Part shown: piece by piece, positions 1-5,008 of the stretch
How positions within the stretch are numbered: the stretch's first letter is position 1
Layout of the letters: the number at the start of each line of letters is the position of its first letter
DNA from: a virus
IMG/VR virus record: IMGVR_UViG_3300045988_167509
Span: 1-5,008 of that record
Reading direction: 5' to 3' (one strand)
DNA length: 5,008 nt
Notes under the pieces: generated by a model
Seen by the model: the letters and a program-made list of their open reading frames with translations, nothing else
The model's database searches: none
Told to the model about the DNA's origin: nothing
Program-made: the position numbers and the translations under genes

Positions 1-63
1 AACGAACATAGGGGCGAAAATTCCGGAAATGTCATTTACAACAGACAAAGGGCTCACCTCCAT
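1..63 (-). CDS. Partial duplicate copy (N-terminal 21 codons) of the VP2-like gene, present because of the terminal redundancy
   Basis: The minus-strand ATG at 63..61 is the same ATG as 4972..4970 (MEVSPLSVVNDISGIF...). The ORF runs off the window start. This is an assembly/linearisation artefact, not a second gene. Confidence 0.5.
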   Translation of the reverse strand, partial: MEVSPLSVVNDISGIFAPMFV

Positions 64-99
64 CAGAGATAAAAAAAGTGCAATAACGTAAAAAAAAAT
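1..99. repeat. Terminal redundancy of the linearised circular genome; identical to 4910..5008
   Basis: I compared 1..99 with 4910..5008 base by base and they are identical. This gives a circular unit of 4909 nt. The anchor 'cat' at 61..63 matches 4970..4972. Whether the identity extends beyond the window ends cannot be seen. Confidence 0.9.
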
Positions 100-111
100 A
101 GGAAAGCACAT

Positions 112-161
112 TCAAAAACTCCGAACGGAGCTTAATACCGCAAATGCGGCGCTCCGTCCGG
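112..161 (-). terminator. Putative rho-independent terminator downstream of VP1
   Basis: On the minus strand, 161..121 forms a GC-rich stem (121-131 ccgaacggagc pairs with 151-161 gctccgtccgg, 10 of 11 bp). It carries an internal mini-hairpin, ccgc-aaat-gcgg at 138..149. It is immediately followed, at 120..112, by AGTTTTTGAA and further T-runs (CCTATTTTTTTTTACG). It lies 15 nt after the VP1 stop at 176..178. A second 6-bp GC stem, 165-170 ggccgg / 182-187 ccggcc, straddles the VP1 stop. Confidence 0.45.
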
Positions 162-175
162 AATGGCCGGCGAAA

Positions 176-1879
176 TCACATCCGGCCAAGGTGAGCCGGA
201 ATAGAATACATAGGCATAGGACGAGTATGCAGAACGTCAAAAGCGAAATCACCGAAAATCTGATTGGAAACAGAGGAAGAAACAGTAAGAACACGATCAA
301 CATTTGCAACATCCTCTCTAATCCAAGAATCAGAAAGAACAGGAGGGGAAGAATAATTGTCCGCAAGCGTCCAAGTGAAAAGGGAATTCTTCACATTCGG
401 GCGAAGCTCGCCAGAGACGCGCGAAGGTTTGTATCTATAATCAGACCAAGCTTCCTGATAAGCGAACACATCACCAACCGGATTATCGTCCGAATAAAAG
501 ATTTCGTCACGGTAAACGGGTTGCTCTCCAATCGAACTAAACACGGGAAGAAAGAAATCAAAAACAGAATCACGCATCCAAAAACGTTCAAGACCCTGTG
601 CATAAGTGTGACGATAACGAACAACACCGAGACAGAAAAGAAAACCATGTTCAGTAAAAGACTTACGAACATCAAAATGAACATCAGCGGTGACAGAGTT
701 AGCGCCCAAATCACCAAGAAAATCATTCTCCGTCTGGGCAGTGTTAGCCACAGCCGAAACATTCAAACGAATGCGATTCCCTCCGAGATACTCGGGAATC
801 TGCAGACGGGCATCAGGCGAGATGACGCCAAAATGATTACGCAGAATTTCGGTATAGCGAGAACCGCCGCGCGCATTTCGCTCTAAATACTCCTGAGCGG
901 CGAAGGCATAACGAAGATCATTGACCGTGAAATTTGTTGCCGAAGAACCGGGAACATCAACTTTTAAATTGGATGGAAAAGCATAAACTTTACCTTCCGT
1001 AAGTTCGCCACTGTGCGAACCATAACGCCAAGAATAATCACCAGATTGACCGTCAATCTGAACGAAACCGGGCTGCTGCAAAGAACCAAAATTCGACCAA
1101 GAACCATCACTGTTATAGACCTTAGAGAAGAAACGCAAAGGAGAAGAACCGGGAGTAAAAGTCTGATCGTCGGCGGTAATTACAGGAAAAGAACCGCCAG
1201 AAAAAGAAGGAATAGGGATATTGACGGCCTGACCTTTCTGAGGGGAAGGAAGAGCAGAAGTGAAATAATCGTGAAGCTTCGAAGCCTTGAAAGGCTTACC
1301 GCCTAGCGGCACATCGACAAGATAATTAGAACCGTTTGAGCCGGTAAGGGAGGAATCACCAACATAAACATTAAGAGGGTCAGTCAAATTCTCGTCACGG
1401 AAAAACGTATTGCATATCAAAGAATAACCGCGGAAAGGAAGAGCAGACGGGGCTTTCTTCGTATCAGTAACCGATACACCAACGGGAATGCCCATATAGT
1501 CAGCAATAGTACCAGTCTGCCAACCGCCATCAGGCGGAATGAGCTTCGGCACAGAATAAGAAGTCGTGGGCGCCCAAGCACTCTGAGTATTTTCGCCTTG
1601 AAATTGCTGCCAATGCTCCCAAGTAAGACGGTTAGGAACAAAAAACCAATATGTATCAAAGAAAAGATCATCAAAGATCGGGGAATGAAGAGTCTGGAGA
1701 CGAACAAGCTTGCTCATGGTAATCTCCACGGAATCACCAGGCAAAATCTCATCTACATAAAGGGGAACAACGTCACCAACGTTAAAAGACGTAGTATGAC
1801 GACTGGGACGCTTAAAAATCGAACGCTGAATATTAGCTGACGGAAGAATAGAGAAATGAGAAGAATCATTCCGAGACAT
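176..1879 (-). CDS. Major capsid protein VP1 (Microviridae F-like), 567 aa
   Basis: A 567 aa ORF. The N-terminus MSRNDSSHF...SFNVGDVVPLYVDEILPGDS and the block RYTEILRNHFGV resemble conserved gokushovirus VP1 blocks as I recall them. The start ATG at 1879..1877 is preceded by AAGGAGGT (1896..1889) with a 9-nt spacer. A Gly/Ser-rich central segment is consistent with the variable insertion loop of gokushovirus VP1. Confidence 0.95.
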   Translation of the reverse strand: MSRNDSSHFSILPSANIQRSIFKRPSRHTTSFNVGDVVPLYVDEILPGDSVEITMSKLVRLQTLHSPIFDDLFFDTYWFFVPNRLTWEHWQQFQGENTQSAWAPTTSYSVPKLIPPDGGWQTGTIADYMGIPVGVSVTDTKKAPSALPFRGYSLICNTFFRDENLTDPLNVYVGDSSLTGSNGSNYLVDVPLGGKPFKASKLHDYFTSALPSPQKGQAVNIPIPSFSGGSFPVITADDQTFTPGSSPLRFFSKVYNSDGSWSNFGSLQQPGFVQIDGQSGDYSWRYGSHSGELTEGKVYAFPSNLKVDVPGSSATNFTVNDLRYAFAAQEYLERNARGGSRYTEILRNHFGVISPDARLQIPEYLGGNRIRLNVSAVANTAQTENDFLGDLGANSVTADVHFDVRKSFTEHGFLFCLGVVRYRHTYAQGLERFWMRDSVFDFFLPVFSSIGEQPVYRDEIFYSDDNPVGDVFAYQEAWSDYRYKPSRVSGELRPNVKNSLFTWTLADNYSSPPVLSDSWIREDVANVDRVLTVSSSVSNQIFGDFAFDVLHTRPMPMYSIPAHLGRM

Positions 1880-1974
1880 TATTCATTAACCTCCTTCTGA
1901 GATTCAAGAAGCTCTTTGAGAAGATCAAAGAGAGACGGGAGAATTGCAAGCAGAAACTTTTTGAGAAATTCCAT
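1879..1974 (-). CDS. Unlisted 31 aa amphipathic peptide ORF (MEFLKKFLLAILPSLFDLLKELLESQKEVNE), translationally coupled to VP1
   Basis: The minus-strand ATG is at 1974..1972. It is preceded by GGAGGT, embedded in the C-terminal codons of the 148 aa ORF, with an 11-nt spacer. The stop TAA at 1881..1879 overlaps the VP1 ATG by 1 nt (TAATG). The peptide has a hydrophobic N-half and a charged C-half. It is below the ORF-track length cut-off. Confidence 0.35.
   Translation of the reverse strand: MEFLKKFLLAILPSLFDLLKELLESQKEVNE
1889..1896 (-). promoter_or_regulatory. Shine-Dalgarno AAGGAGGT for VP1
   Basis: Minus-strand AAGGAGGT lies 9 nt upstream of the VP1 ATG. It sits inside the last codons (QKEV) of the 31 aa upstream ORF. 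Confidence 0.8.
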
Positions 1975-1976
1975 AA

Positions 1977-2423
1977 TCAAGAATCACCTCCTTCCGGAGA
2001 AGAACCAACAGGGGGAGAGCCGACAGGGGGAGAATCAGAAACGGGTGCACCAGCAGAAACCCAATCCTTCAGAGAATTAAACTTCGAACGCAATTCGTGA
2101 GGAAGAAGGTCAAAAGCACGCGATGCCTCAATGCCGACATCAAGAAACTCTCGAAGATTACCGGGAATTTGCGAACCATCGCCAAAAACGGCGGGCGCTC
2201 GACAGAGCGCGGAAAAGTCACCATTCTCAAGCTTATTGAGAATCAATGAAAGATCACACTCATCAGCATGAGAATTAATCTCATCCTTGATGTTGACCTT
2301 AGCAAGCGGAAGCAACTCAAAAGAACCATTTGGAAGAAGATGCGGAGAAAAAACAGTGTGCTCAGAGTCACCGCAAGCGGAAAAGGGAGCAGAAGGCATG
2401 AGAGACGCAAAAGAATTTCTCAT
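1977..2423 (-). CDS. Hypothetical 148 aa protein immediately upstream of VP1; possibly an internal scaffolding (VP3-like) protein by size and position only
   Basis: The ATG at 2423..2421 is preceded by GGAGGT with a 9-nt spacer. The ORF-track TTG at 2429 is only 3 nt from the SD, so it is an unlikely start. The start overlaps the stop of the 74 aa ORF by 1 nt (TAATG). The C-terminus has a tandem SPPVGSPPVG repeat. I do not recognise sequence-level homology. Confidence 0.6.
   Translation of the reverse strand: MRNSFASLMPSAPFSACGDSEHTVFSPHLLPNGSFELLPLAKVNIKDEINSHADECDLSLILNKLENGDFSALCRAPAVFGDGSQIPGNLREFLDVGIEASRAFDLLPHELRSKFNSLKDWVSAGAPVSDSPPVGSPPVGSSPEGGDS
2007..2036 (-). repeat. Imperfect 15-nt tandem duplication encoding SPPVG-SPPVG at the C-terminus of the 148 aa ORF
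   Basis: Plus strand 2007-2021 aacagggggagagcc and 2022-2036 gacagggggagaatc match at 12 of 15 positions. Confidence 0.8.
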
Positions 2424-2647
2424 TAGCAAACAACCTCCGGCGGAATAACCGCCGTAACAGTGCCAGAATCCATATCCATATCAGCAACATGATAAAGGGA
2501 AAGATCAGCAACAGAAAGAGAAAGATCAGAATTGGTTTTGAGAAAAAACTGCCAATCACGAACAGCTTGTTCAACAGAAGGACAAGTGATAGGGTCAGCA
2601 AAACCAGTGCGAGCATCACGAACGGCAAAAACAGGACGAATAAACAT
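2423..2647 (-). CDS. Hypothetical 74 aa protein (MFIRPVFAVRDARTGFADPITCPSVEQ...)
   Basis: The ATG at 2647..2645 is preceded by GGAGGT with a 9-nt spacer, the same 12-mer leader (GGAGGTTGTTT) as the 148 aa ORF. Its start overlaps the TGA of the upstream 53 aa ORF (TGATG). Its stop TAA overlaps the next ATG. Confidence 0.5.
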   Translation of the reverse strand: MFIRPVFAVRDARTGFADPITCPSVEQAVRDWQFFLKTNSDLSLSVADLSLYHVADMDMDSGTVTAVIPPEVVC

Positions 2648-2808
2648 CAAAAAACAACCTCCGTTTCAATTTCATCATCAAGAACAAAAACAACATCATC
2701 ATCAGGGAAAAAACGACGAAGAGAACGCCCTAGCTGATTTCGCTCTGGCACATTAGAGAAAGAAGCAGAGAAGAAAAGGAAATCCCCAACACGAACAAAA
2801 CAAGTCAT
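2647..2808 (-). CDS. Hypothetical 53 aa protein (MTCFVRVGDFLFFSASFSNVPERNQLGRSLRRFFPDDDVVFVLDDEIETEVVF), not in the ORF track
   Basis: I translated the minus strand by hand. The ATG is at 2808..2806, with GAGGAG 5 nt upstream. The start overlaps the TAA of the 68 aa ORF by 1 nt. The stop TGA at 2649..2647 overlaps the ATG of the 74 aa ORF. The region is 162 nt, 53 codons plus stop. Confidence 0.4.
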   Translation of the reverse strand: MTCFVRVGDFLFFSASFSNVPERNQLGRSLRRFFPDDDVVFVLDDEIETEVVF

Positions 2809-3014
2809 TAAATCTCCTCACAAAAAACAAAAAAATGAGAAGTGTTCATAAAATCACCACACCGAGCAGAAGAAGAAGAAAGAAAATCGACAAAACAAGA
2901 AACTGCATAAATCTCAGAACAAGAAGCAAAAGGAGAAAGACAACGTACAACATCTTCCTTGCAAGAGCAGCGATCATAAACAGAACTGTCTTTGCGACGA
3001 ACAAGAACAACCAT
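2808..3014 (-). CDS. Hypothetical Cys-rich 68 aa protein (7 Cys; MVVLVRRKDSSVYDRCSCKEDVVRCLSPFASCSEIYAVSCF...)
   Basis: This is the minus-strand ORF from the track, trimmed to the ATG at 3014..3012. It has a weak SD (AAAGG) 9 nt upstream. Its stop is coupled (TAATG) to the 53 aa ORF. It is in the same frame as, and 15 nt downstream of, the Arg-rich ORF stop. Confidence 0.4.
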   Translation of the reverse strand: MVVLVRRKDSSVYDRCSCKEDVVRCLSPFASCSEIYAVSCFVDFLSSSSARCGDFMNTSHFFVFCEEI

Positions 3015-3029
3015 TTTCAAAAGCCTTTC

Positions 3030-3146
3030 TCAAAGGCGAATACCGCCTCGATAGTTAACAACGCCAAGGTTAACGTCCTTAGTGCGCGAAGCAGTGCGAG
3101 CAAAGAAACGACGATCAGAACGGCGACGAACACGAAATCGATTGAT
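3030..3146 (-). CDS. Candidate small basic DNA-binding protein (J / ORF8-like): 38 codons, 11 Arg plus 1 Lys, no canonical start codon
   Basis: The minus-strand frame INRFRVRRRSDRRFFARTASRTKDVNLGVVNYRGGIRL* is open from the TAG at 3194..3192 to the TGA at 3032..3030. The only plausible initiator is ATC at 3146..3144, 6 nt after the GGAGGT that overlaps the Rep stop (TAGGAGGTG). The size and charge resemble microvirus J/ORF8 packaging proteins. There is no in-frame ATG, GTG or TTG. Confidence 0.3.
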   Translation of the reverse strand: MNRFRVRRRSDRRFFARTASRTKDVNLGVVNYRGGIRL

Positions 3147-3157
3147 AAAAACACCTC

Positions 3158-4111
3158 CTAAATTTTGTTCTTCTTCAGACGAGAAAGAGCACTATTTTGT
3201 GAAGCTTCTTTCACCTCCAGATAATCAGTTAAACCAAGATCAGTGTACTGCAATTCAAGAAGCTGCCTATCATCAGCAAAACGCTTCCTTGACTTGACAA
3301 TACTTTTATACCACTCGTCACCGAAGATGTCAATACCTTTCTTCAAAAGAAATTTAGGTGTAGTACACTTTCCTCTATGCTCATCGCCGAGGAAATGAAA
3401 ATAGTCATCCTTTGCATCAGGATGATCTTGCCAAAAATAACCAGCAAGACCGGGCCGACGCGACATAGTGGCAAATTCGGGCTCAATATTATGTTCAGCA
3501 TAAAAAATAGCATTTTTTCCAGTCTGCTTTTTCAAGCAATAACGGGCAACATAAGCACAAGTACGCCACGAAACATTAGCAAGAGAACACTGACCTTTTT
3601 TCCAAAGTCTATCAGACAAAAGAGCAGAAACAAAAACAGGATCACCAAGCTCATTTTTGAAAAGCAAACGAGCATCAGAAAAGTCGGAAAGCGAAAGACC
3701 AAAGACAATCAAATGATAATGCGGCCGAGCAGTTTTGTCGCCGTACTCACCAGCACAAAAAAAACGAATCTCTTTATCTTGAAAATAGAAGCGCAAGCGC
3801 TTTAGAAAGAGCTGAGCATCACGTTTATCAAGAGAAAATATAGGGGTATCGTTTTCAGTAATCAAGCCAATAGGCACATTCTCGGGCGAATACGTAAGCG
3901 TAAGAAAAACGGCAGTCTTTGAATGATCAAGCTCCATCATCATTCGATCAGCCCACTGGCGGGAACGATCGAGACGGCAGCCAATGCACTGTCCACAAGG
4001 AATAGAAACCTCAGTAAGATCAAGACGTTCACCAGTAGCACGACCGGGAAGAATCTTAATCTTCTTTTCAATTGGGTCATAAACTCCAACCATAGGCTTA
4101 TAGCAAGACAA
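3158..4111 (-). CDS. Rolling-circle replication initiation protein (VP4/Rep, phiX174 gpA-like), 317 aa
   Basis: It carries the motifs FLTLTY (motif 1), PHYHLIVF (HUH, motif 2) and YVARYCLKK (motif 3, Y..K). An N-terminal Cys cluster, CGQCIGCRLDRSRQW, is as I recall typical of gokushovirus VP4. The start is TTG at 4111..4109 with AAAGGAGG 7-8 nt upstream. The first in-frame ATG, at 4093, is 26 nt from the SD. Confidence 0.93.
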   Translation of the reverse strand: MSCYKPMVGVYDPIEKKIKILPGRATGERLDLTEVSIPCGQCIGCRLDRSRQWADRMMMELDHSKTAVFLTLTYSPENVPIGLITENDTPIFSLDKRDAQLFLKRLRFYFQDKEIRFFCAGEYGDKTARPHYHLIVFGLSLSDFSDARLLFKNELGDPVFVSALLSDRLWKKGQCSLANVSWRTCAYVARYCLKKQTGKNAIFYAEHNIEPEFATMSRRPGLAGYFWQDHPDAKDDYFHFLGDEHRGKCTTPKFLLKKGIDIFGDEWYKSIVKSRKRFADDRQLLELQYTDLGLTDYLEVKEASQNSALSRLKKNKI

Positions 4112-4119
4112 AGTTTTTT

Positions 4120-4127
4120 CCTCCTTT
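4120..4127 (-). promoter_or_regulatory. Shine-Dalgarno AAAGGAGG for Rep (serving the TTG start)
   Basis: On the minus strand, GGAAAGGAGGAAAAAACTTTG reads directly into the Rep ORF. Confidence 0.75.
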
Positions 4128-4132
4128 CCTGT

Positions 4133-4172
4133 CAGTCAGCACAGTTACATCAAGTAGAACATGTGCTGACTG
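4133..4172. promoter_or_regulatory. Perfect 10-bp inverted repeat (cagtcagcac / gtgctgactg) with a 20-nt spacer in the Rep leader
   Basis: 4133-4142 is the exact reverse complement of 4163-4172. It lies 22-60 nt upstream of the Rep start. It could be an operator, an RNA hairpin or an origin element. Confidence 0.6.
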
Positions 4173-4174
4173 CA

Positions 4175-4219
4175 TCCATTGGCTATGCAAAACGCTATCG
4201 CGTTTAACACAGCCAATGG
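4175..4219. promoter_or_regulatory. 9-bp inverted repeat (tccattggc / gccaatgga) enclosing copy 1 of the 32-bp direct repeat, with a nested 6-bp hairpin
   Basis: 4175-4183 tccattggc is the reverse complement of 4211-4219 gccaatgga. Inside it, aaacgc-tatc-gcgttt forms a perfect 6-bp stem with a 4-nt loop. Confidence 0.6.
4182..4213. repeat. 32-bp perfect direct repeat, copy 1 (gctatgcaaaacgctatcgcgtttaacacagc)
   Basis: It is identical to 4229..4260. Each copy contains the palindrome aaacgcTATCgcgttt. Confidence 0.9.
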
Positions 4220-4228
4220 AGAAAAAAC

Positions 4229-4260
4229 GCTATGCAAAACGCTATCGCGTTTAACACAGC
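4229..4260. repeat. 32-bp perfect direct repeat, copy 2
   Basis: It is identical to 4182..4213. Copy starts are 47 bp apart. Confidence 0.9.
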
Positions 4261-4303
4261 GTTTTATAACTACTAGAGACTCGAAATCACTTCTTTCTAT
4301 CTA

Positions 4304-4972
4304 CTAATTAAGGACAGAATCAAGCGCTTGAAGACCTGCTTTCGCGCCGTAATAAACAGAAGCTGAAAGCTGAAAATTTTTGGTTGCTGCCATAGTGGCA
4401 GCACTGGCAAGAGCTGCGGCAGCAGACTGAATATTACCGTTATGAAGCAACGAACGAAAAGAAAAATCATTGCTCTTAACAGAAGAAGCGGAAGAGCCGT
4501 AACCACCGGAAGAGCCGTAACCAGAAAGACCGGCAGAAGCAGTAGAAGCGCCGCCAACGTTACCAAGGGCAAGAACAGGATTTAAACCAGCAGCTTTAAG
4601 ATCAGCAACACGACGCTGTATAGCGGTATTATCAAGCGCTTCTTGATAAGCAGTTGAAACACCAAGACCGTAATGTTTAGCAAGATCGGCGTTGAGATAA
4701 TCAACGGCAGGAGAGGAAACATTACCAGAAAAACCACTGCCGTTGGAAGGCTGAACGGACGGCGTTTTCTGCGAATCTGCAGAACTACCGAAAAAGAGCT
4801 CAAGAATACCGGGCGACTTCTGAGCATTCATCTGAGAAGCGCCACCAGGTGAAAAAGGCGCTAGAACGTAAGAGGCAATGGAAGAACCAACAGCAGAAGC
4901 AGAAGAAGGAACGAACATAGGGGCGAAAATTCCGGAAATGTCATTTACAACAGACAAAGGGCTCACCTCCAT
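4304..4972 (-). CDS. Minor capsid / DNA pilot protein (VP2-like), about 217-222 aa, Gly/Ser/Ala-rich
   Basis: This ORF follows VP1 on the coding strand. The segment AKHYGLGVSTAYQEALDNTAIQRRVADLKAAGLNPVLA resembles the conserved block of gokushovirus VP2 as I recall it. The start is ambiguous: the ATG at 4972 has no SD. An in-frame TTG at 4957..4955 sits 8 nt after GGAGGT. A further upstream ATG, equivalent to 111..109, would add a 16 aa hydrophobic extension. Confidence 0.75.
   Translation of the reverse strand: MEVSPLSVVNDISGIFAPMFVPSSASAVGSSIASYVLAPFSPGGASQMNAQKSPGILELFFGSSADSQKTPSVQPSNGSGFSGNVSSPAVDYLNADLAKHYGLGVSTAYQEALDNTAIQRRVADLKAAGLNPVLALGNVGGASTASAGLSGYGSSGGYGSSASSVKSNDFSFRSLLHNGNIQSAAAALASAATMAATKNFQLSASVYYGAKAGLQALDSVLN
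4490..4524 (-). repeat. Tandem 18-nt repeat (cggaagagccgtaacca x2) encoding the GYGSS-GGYGSS low-complexity segment in VP2
   Basis: 4490-4506 and 4508-4524 are identical 17-mers separated by 1 nt. Confidence 0.85.
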
Positions 4973-5008
4973 CAGAGATAAAAAAAGTGCAATAACGTAA
5001 AAAAAAAT
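4910..5008. repeat. Terminal redundancy, identical to 1..99
   Basis: Base-by-base identity with the window start. Confidence 0.9.

Follow-up and report, generated by a model that had tools for sequence, protein, structure and literature searches.

A gokushovirus-type VP8 gene with a putative ATC start codon in an uncultivated microvirus genome

VP8 of gokushoviruses is an Arg/Lys-rich analogue of the phiX174 protein J, with a C-terminus that is buried in the coat protein and a basic N-terminus that contacts the DNA (PMC11281519). As cited in this SpV4 structure paper, the capsid structure of the gokushovirus phiEC6098 contains the C-terminal 10 residues of VP8 in ordered form (PMC11281519), and Kirchberger et al. 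count VP8 as a conserved gokushoviral gene (PMC9239249). In E. coli, no natural non-canonical starts other than AUU in infC and pcnB are confirmed (Hecht et al., 10.1101/063800), and initiation at AUC reaches 1–2% of the AUG level, yielding a product that starts with Met (10.1101/063800). Here we analyze a 5,008-nucleotide (nt) stretch of viral DNA, positions 1 to 5,008 of the IMG/VR record IMGVR_UViG_3300045988_167509 (at its full length termed the window), whose minus strand encodes a small Arg-rich peptide directly after the replication gene Rep. This open reading frame (ORF) is almost certainly a real, selected VP8 gene. From its sequence and that of its relatives we infer that translation very probably begins at ATC 3146..3144. 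The unusual part is the initiation codon, as a natural AUC/AUU start is rare. The elements of the locus are as follows.

3030..3146, minus strand: coding sequence of VP8, a small basic DNA-binding/packaging protein; 38 codons from ATC plus TGA at 3032..3030, based on translation, phrog_10695, the alignment and the ratio of nonsynonymous to synonymous differences (pN/pS)
3144..3146, minus strand: predicted initiation codon ATC, homologous to ATG/TTG/ATT in relatives and the sole near-cognate start in the frame
3152..3159, minus strand: Shine-Dalgarno (SD) sequence AGGAGGTG, overlapping the stop codon of Rep; a T5 spacer (3151..3147) follows
3160..3158, minus strand: Rep stop codon TAG, inside TAGGAGGTG and 11 nt upstream of the VP8 ATC
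3147..3191, minus strand: upstream part of the open frame, 15 codons, without a start codon and outside the gene

The VP8 frame opens after a stop at 3194..3192, continues through 15 sense codons (CSFSSEEEQNLGGVF) into the peptide INRFRVRRRSDRRFFARTASRTKDVNLGVVNYRGGIRL and ends with TGA at 3032..3030. Translation reproduced the 38-residue peptide with 11 Arg and 1 Lys that an initial annotation of this DNA had described, and from 3194 to 3030 on the minus strand the frame contains no ATG, GTG or TTG, again as described. The Rep stop TAG is embedded in TAGGAGGTG, as that annotation had it, while its distance of 6 nt between SD and ATC needs correction, since the ATC lies 5 nt downstream of the SD's GTG and 7 nt downstream of AGGAGG. 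The 15 upstream codons correspond to the Rep 3' end in the −1 reading frame, together with the SD and the spacer, and lie outside the VP8 gene. The CpG-rich patch noticed earlier is real: with 15 CpG in 117 nt the VP8 ORF represents the maximum among all 117-nt windows of the genome (genome mean 0.053 per nt), because all 11 Arg codons are CGN. Of the remaining two minus-strand frames, one encodes a hydrophobic peptide from the SD's own GTG and the other is filled with stops. The plus strand does contain a basic ORF (3082..3297), but it is interrupted by stops in most relatives; we rejected it as a gene, in line with its earlier description as a mirror artefact. Downstream, the VP8 TGA is in frame with a 70-aa ORF that follows after 9 nt (window 3020–3032, minus strand). 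This looks like a coincidence rather than a readthrough design, as L002 and L009, two related contigs, have TAA and another spacing.

The peptide is a member of a known family rather than a new type of element. Its full length matches phrog_10695, a family of 39 positions whose function is unknown (residues 2–38 against profile positions 3–39; E=1.5e-7). Searching via Rep homologues, we found genes annotated as 'DNA binding protein' with 35–38 aa directly after Rep in the GenBank genomes of Dulem virus 115 and 155, and an alignment revealed the pattern D-R/K-x-F-x-R-T-A...K-x-N...Y/F-RGGIRL that is common to these proteins and the VP8 peptide. A family profile built from an alignment of eight peptides, the first row of which is the 45-aa open frame, matches 643 protein clusters of 33–39 aa at E≤1e-3, mostly on contigs of up to about 5.5 kb. 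The few named clusters among them are called 'DNA binding protein' or 'hypothetical protein [Microviridae sp.]'. In IMG/VR the homologues span 31–40 codons from probable start to stop. The same profile matches PDB 8DES_E ('Putative DNA binding protein', 39 aa, ending in MRGGIRL), at only E=0.004. We take 8DES to be the phiEC6098 capsid structure, the output for the database entry giving no virus name. The window peptide ends with YRGGIRL directly before its stop codon and thus shares the terminal RGGIRL with 8DES_E. Searches with the 38-aa peptide yielded no Pfam family at E≤1, Microvir_J included, and tblastn against phages gave no match at E≤0.01 and only C-terminal 16-aa matches (E 3–5) at E≤10. 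Judged by its size, basicity, homology, RGGIRL tail and place next to VP4, minus 3146..3030 is predicted to encode a gokushovirus-type VP8. The homology evidence bears out the earlier proposal of a gokushovirus VP8-class DNA-binding peptide. The likeness to phiX174 J that had been proposed alongside holds for function only and does not extend to sequence membership, for which Pfam gave no match.

We compared the locus across a clade set of 17 contigs, comprising the window and 16 contigs from IMG/VR, ENA and Logan (designated L plus a number) with at least 82% identity in Rep. A Rep-alignment scan of metagenomes contributed one new locus (L009), and a search of IMG/VR with the DNA pattern CGTTCTGATCGTCGTTWYTTT returned no contigs beyond three already known. 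Alignment with related microviruses had been suggested as a check of the Arg-rich frame; the relatives do carry an Arg-rich ORF after Rep, in some cases starting from ATG. Pairwise pN/pS of this frame is 0.0–0.39 overall and 0.06–0.28 among ATC carriers, compared with 1.0–5.3 when the same DNA is read in other frames. Of the variable sites, 7, 6 and 19 fall on codon positions 1, 2 and 3, respectively. The Arg frame is under purifying selection, also in the ATC carriers.

At the codon homologous to the window's ATC, the clade contigs contain the following.

ATC: the window, L091, L092, L001, L009 and L094 (6 of 17 contigs)
ATT: L088 (1 of 17)
ATG: L010, L011 and L012 (3 of 17)
TTG: L002, L003, L086, L087, L089, L090 and L093 (7 of 17)

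The rare AUC initiator, one of the candidates in the initial annotation, gains support from these relatives, which carry ATG, TTG or ATT at the same codon behind the same SD. L010 encodes the exact peptide of the window from an ATG, with Met replacing Ile. No ATC or ATT genome of the clade set contains an internal ATG, GTG or TTG. Upstream, the nearest in-frame stop is separated from the start codon by 15 codons in the window, by 4 in L001 (GGA GGT GTT TTT) and by 1 in L088 (TAA TTT ATT). The position of the VP8 frame relative to Rep also varies: it is −1 in the window, 0 in L001, L002 and L003 and +1 in L009 and L094, because the length of the T run and the use of TAG or TAA change the distance from the Rep stop to the VP8 start. 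Given these frame relations and upstream stops, no near-cognate initiator other than ATC or ATT is left.

The ATC carriers differ by 11–14% in Rep nucleotide sequence. In a bootstrapped neighbor-joining tree of Rep they form two groups with 100% support, each with a TTG sister: the window, L091 and L001 with L086, and L009 and L094 with L093. L010 (ATG) pairs with L088 (ATT), and the outer branches are all TTG. This pattern therefore implies several start-codon changes, always among table 11 initiators, with ATC persisting through substantial divergence; recombination could blur the history of the start codon on a Rep tree. The wider family starts VP8 almost exclusively with ATG: 73 IMG/VR loci include two TTG, one GTG and one locus without a canonical start (L001). 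Variation is also seen at other starts. Rep begins with TTG in the window (4111) and with ATG in L010 and L003, and the VP3, VP5, 33-aa and 70-aa ORFs (2429, 2650, 1980 and 3020, minus strand) open with TTG followed by ATG 1–2 codons on, so their true starts are ambiguous. The clade seems generally to pair strong SDs with weak start codons.

The initiation region is conserved beyond the start codon. All 17 contigs keep (A)AGGAGGTG, with the start codon 5–7 nt after GGAGGTG. The SD duplex with the 3' tail of the 16S rRNA covers 8 nt and has a predicted energy of −14.1 kcal/mol, which is among the stronger sites in the genome, and in some relatives the pairing extends to 11 nt (TAAGGAGGTGAT). 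Predicted folding of the 101 nt around the start is weaker than in any of 200 shuffled versions (z=+2.4), consistent with an accessible initiation site at the VP8 start. In the mechanism that we propose, the 8-nt SD (AGGAGGUG), its optimal spacing and the unstructured region would together permit initiation at AUC 3146..3144, which would be read by the initiator tRNA with a third-position mismatch, so that the product would start with Met. A further boost would probably come from ribosomes that end Rep translation inside the SD, 11 nt upstream. The use of AUC, its efficiency and a contribution of Rep coupling are inferred from the sequence data. VP8 would then enter the capsid with the single-stranded DNA, anchored to the coat protein by its C-terminal YRGGIRL tail, as an analogue of phiX174 J.

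Several points weigh against an ATC start. AUC is a poor initiator in E. coli (1–2% of AUG) and ATC is very rare across the family, the single case among the 73 IMG/VR loci being L001 itself. The purifying selection among ATC carriers is calculated from few substitutions (synonymous differences, Sd, 3–6; nonsynonymous differences, Nd, 1–3). In addition, the codon set ATG/TTG/ATC/ATT is weak evidence, as table 11 counts 6 of the 9 codons one step away from ATG as starts. Finally, there is the question of dosage. The phiX174 virion contains 60 copies of J, and by analogy the copy number of VP8 presumably resembles that of J, which is hard to reconcile with a weak start. This gap could be resolved by the strong SD, by coupling to Rep, or by a host with laxer start-codon discrimination.

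If the poor efficiency of AUC, about 50–100-fold weaker than AUG in E. coli, is taken at face value, the ATC and ATT lineages might translate VP8 hardly or never, being either defective genomes that co-infecting ATG/TTG relatives complement in trans or genomes for which VP8 is dispensable. Such relatives are at hand: the gut metagenomes that yielded ATG, TTG and ATC variants are similar, and L001, L002 and L003 all stem from the single IMG dataset 3300045988. We nevertheless regard this as very unlikely: the ORF is intact with the low pN/pS among ATC carriers given above, the SD and its spacing are kept, and ATC persists across 11–14% Rep divergence and in at least five independent datasets. 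A mechanism closer to the one proposed here is strict termination-reinitiation, in which 70S ribosomes terminate at the TAG of Rep, slide on by 11 nt and start again at the AUC, making VP8 output fully dependent on Rep translation, with no part for de novo 30S binding. In all 17 contigs the Rep stop overlaps the SD and lies 11–13 nt before the VP8 start, as this would require. On the other hand, a full SD of 8–11 nt at optimal spacing is sufficient for de novo initiation, and the demand for Rep is presumably far lower than that for a peptide lining the inside of the capsid. Strict dependence on Rep thus appears doubtful to us; termination-reinitiation as such is a possible route to the same AUC, a sub-mechanism rather than another gene model. 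A further idea concerns the role of the weak codon rather than the route to it. Since initiation factor 3 (IF3) discriminates against AUY, the AUC/AUU start might be an adaptive throttle that makes VP8 dependent on Rep-coupled ribosomes or on the IF3/initiation state of the host, which we consider tentative and rather improbable.

The remaining explanations dispense with an AUY start altogether. The window's Arg frame, which extends upstream for 15 open codons and overlaps the end of Rep in the −1 frame, would fit VP8 being a C-terminal extension of Rep made by programmed −1 frameshifting or stop readthrough. However, the relation of the two frames differs between contigs (−1, 0 or +1) and L088 carries a TAA in the VP8 frame, two codons ahead of its ATT; together these therefore exclude frameshifting and readthrough from Rep. 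The end of Rep, AAC AAA ATT TAG, likewise offers no X XXY YYZ heptamer in the Rep frame, and the family members are free-standing proteins of 33–39 aa, so that this explanation is extremely improbable. A sequencing or assembly error, which had been among the original candidates, could be an indel or a miscalled base, and the homopolymer T runs beside the start do vary from T5 to T8 among relatives. This candidate is contradicted by L091 and L092, separate ENA assemblies of the same strain with 99.8% Rep nucleotide identity to the window, which both carry the identical TAGGAGGTGTTTTTATC; the ATC and the frame are therefore not assembly artefacts. ATC or ATT recurs in four further diverged contigs, and no single indel yields an in-frame canonical start except via the SD's own GTG, leaving an error with a negligible chance. 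That GTG opens the only ORF with a canonical start at the site, a hydrophobic 45-aa frame (3154..3017, minus strand) that is also open in L001, and it might be the real gene or might lead into VP8 by slippage on the T run. Yet the GTG abuts the SD with zero spacer, and its frame stops after 1–3 codons in L002, L003 and L088, the GTG of L088 being directly followed by TAA. With a pN/pS of 1.0–5.3 and no significant PHROG or Pfam match, we see practically no case for this hydrophobic ORF. Initiation of VP8 at the ATC, with or without help from Rep termination, is the explanation that we retain.

The genome around the locus shows the organization of a microvirus. Positions 1–99 of the window are repeated exactly as a direct terminal repeat at 4910–5008. 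This 99-nt redundancy in a 5008-nt window therefore indicates a circular genome of 4909 nt from which the contig was assembled with an overlap. Every long ORF in the window's ORF list is on the minus strand, including a VP2-like ORF (4972..4304, minus strand) that starts within the terminal repeat. The other identified genes are listed below.

176..1879 (1879..176), minus strand: VP1, Phage_F (Pfam)
1977..2429 (2429..1977), minus strand: scaffold VP3 of the Chlamydia-phage type, Chlamy_scaf (Pfam)
2423..2650 (2650..2423), minus strand: VP5, Phage_ORF5 (Pfam)
3158..4111 (4111..3158), minus strand: Rep/VP4, REP_ORF2-G2P (ORF list, Pfam, and tblastn to microvirus VP4/replication initiator genes)

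Based on these data the window is an uncultivated gokushovirus-like microvirus. Using tblastn, microvirus VP4 genes by the thousand match its Rep, with identities of at most 49%. A megablast search of the whole window against INPHARED found no close relative among deposited phages, as only short fragments matched, and exact look-up of both the 317-aa and the 311-aa form of its Rep returned no contig on record. A scan of genome contigs found no host or prophage. Record names of related metagenomes (Hadza, ZEEV15 and others) point to the human gut. We dropped the possibility of an alternative genetic code, as TGA, TAA and TAG are all used as stops here and translation with table 11 yields full-length Pfam matches for both VP1 and Rep.

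Two regions of the genome deserve mention. The VP2–Rep intergenic region (4112–4303) contains a perfect 32-nt direct repeat (4182–4213 and 4229–4260), each copy located within an imperfect hairpin of 19–21 nt, as well as a perfect hairpin with an 11-bp stem at 4133–4172. Within this region, 4128–4172 is 93.6% identical to an unannotated stretch of the yak-faeces microvirus MG945450, a genome with no further DNA-level similarity to the window. The 4128–4172 stretch is a conserved non-coding element that may serve as a promoter, terminator or origin. Gene content differs between genomes in the slot that separates VP8 from VP5 (window 2808–3020, minus strand; L001 1909–2000; L002 150–210; L003 4657–4700). 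In the window it holds a Cys-rich 70-aa ORF followed by a 53-aa ORF. By eye, the 70-aa ORF seems to be present in L001 with an internal deletion, and in L002 a homologue of the 53-aa ORF (MTCFVRVGDF...) directly follows VP8. An apparently different ORF occupies the slot in L003, L011 and L087, called as 67 aa on L011 and L087. None of the slot ORFs had a Pfam match.

Natural AUC starts that are maintained in evolution are hardly documented. Within the limited coverage of our literature search we found no mention of non-canonical VP8 starts, and the only paper in which Microviridae and a non-canonical start codon were mentioned together dealt with transcription in phiX174. One practical consequence is that a VP8 gene starting with ATC is missed by gene callers, so that genomes of this clade are annotated without a DNA-binding protein. 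The stored gene calls of L087, L089, L090 and L093 also leave a gap of about 140 nt at VP8, despite its TTG start. Short VP8 genes appear to be under-called in public collections whatever their start codon. The assumed role of VP8 is unchanged by the ATC start. In this clade, a single start site of a presumably essential gene carries ATG, TTG, ATC or ATT in near-isogenic genomes, a natural series that could show how much start-codon strength weighs when the SD is very strong. Should the codon act as a throttle, the packaging peptide would be timed or dosed relative to replication, and the repeated switching among ATG, TTG, ATC and ATT, seen in near-identical genomes, would amount to a natural allelic series that tunes this dose, or would reflect a host with relaxed start-codon discrimination.

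A comparison with described systems places the peptide closest to gokushovirus VP8/ORF8, including phiEC6098 VP8 (presumably 8DES chain E) and SpV4 VP8. It shares with them the length of about 38–39 aa, the richness in Arg/Lys, the location on the gene strand of a VP1/VP2/VP4/VP5/VP3 genome and the RGGIRL end, the tail that is buried in the coat protein. In contrast to these, the window's gene starts with ATC and not ATG, and Arg accounts for nearly all of the basic residues in its product (11 Arg, 1 Lys), while the N-terminus of many relatives is rich in Lys. Dulem virus 115 (XCD07974.1), Dulem virus 155 (XCD04069.1) and Sigmofec virus UA08Rod_5899 likewise encode a protein of 35–38 aa directly after the replication initiator. 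These homologues are 40–49% identical to the window peptide and share D-R-x-F-x-R-T-A...K-x-N...YRGGIRL with it, but their starts are canonical (GTG or ATG) and overlap the Rep stop by 4 nt. The resemblance to phiX174 J is a functional analogy between small basic peptides that bind single-stranded DNA inside the virion and have a hydrophobic C-terminal capsid anchor (PMC11281519). Sequence similarity to J is not detectable with Pfam (none at E≤1). The J gene is located between D/E and F, unlike the position of the gene in the window.

With respect to initiation, the nearest parallels are the AUU starts of E. coli infC and pcnB, where AUY likewise is the sole initiator behind an SD. The window resembles infC in its sequence features, having no in-frame ATG, GTG or TTG, a codon homologous to canonical starts and an SD at working distance. 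We know of no IF3-linked regulatory logic for this VP8 start. It differs from infC and pcnB in that the putative codon is AUC (AUU in L088), in that it would serve a phage structural gene, and in that it alternates with ATG and TTG within the clade.

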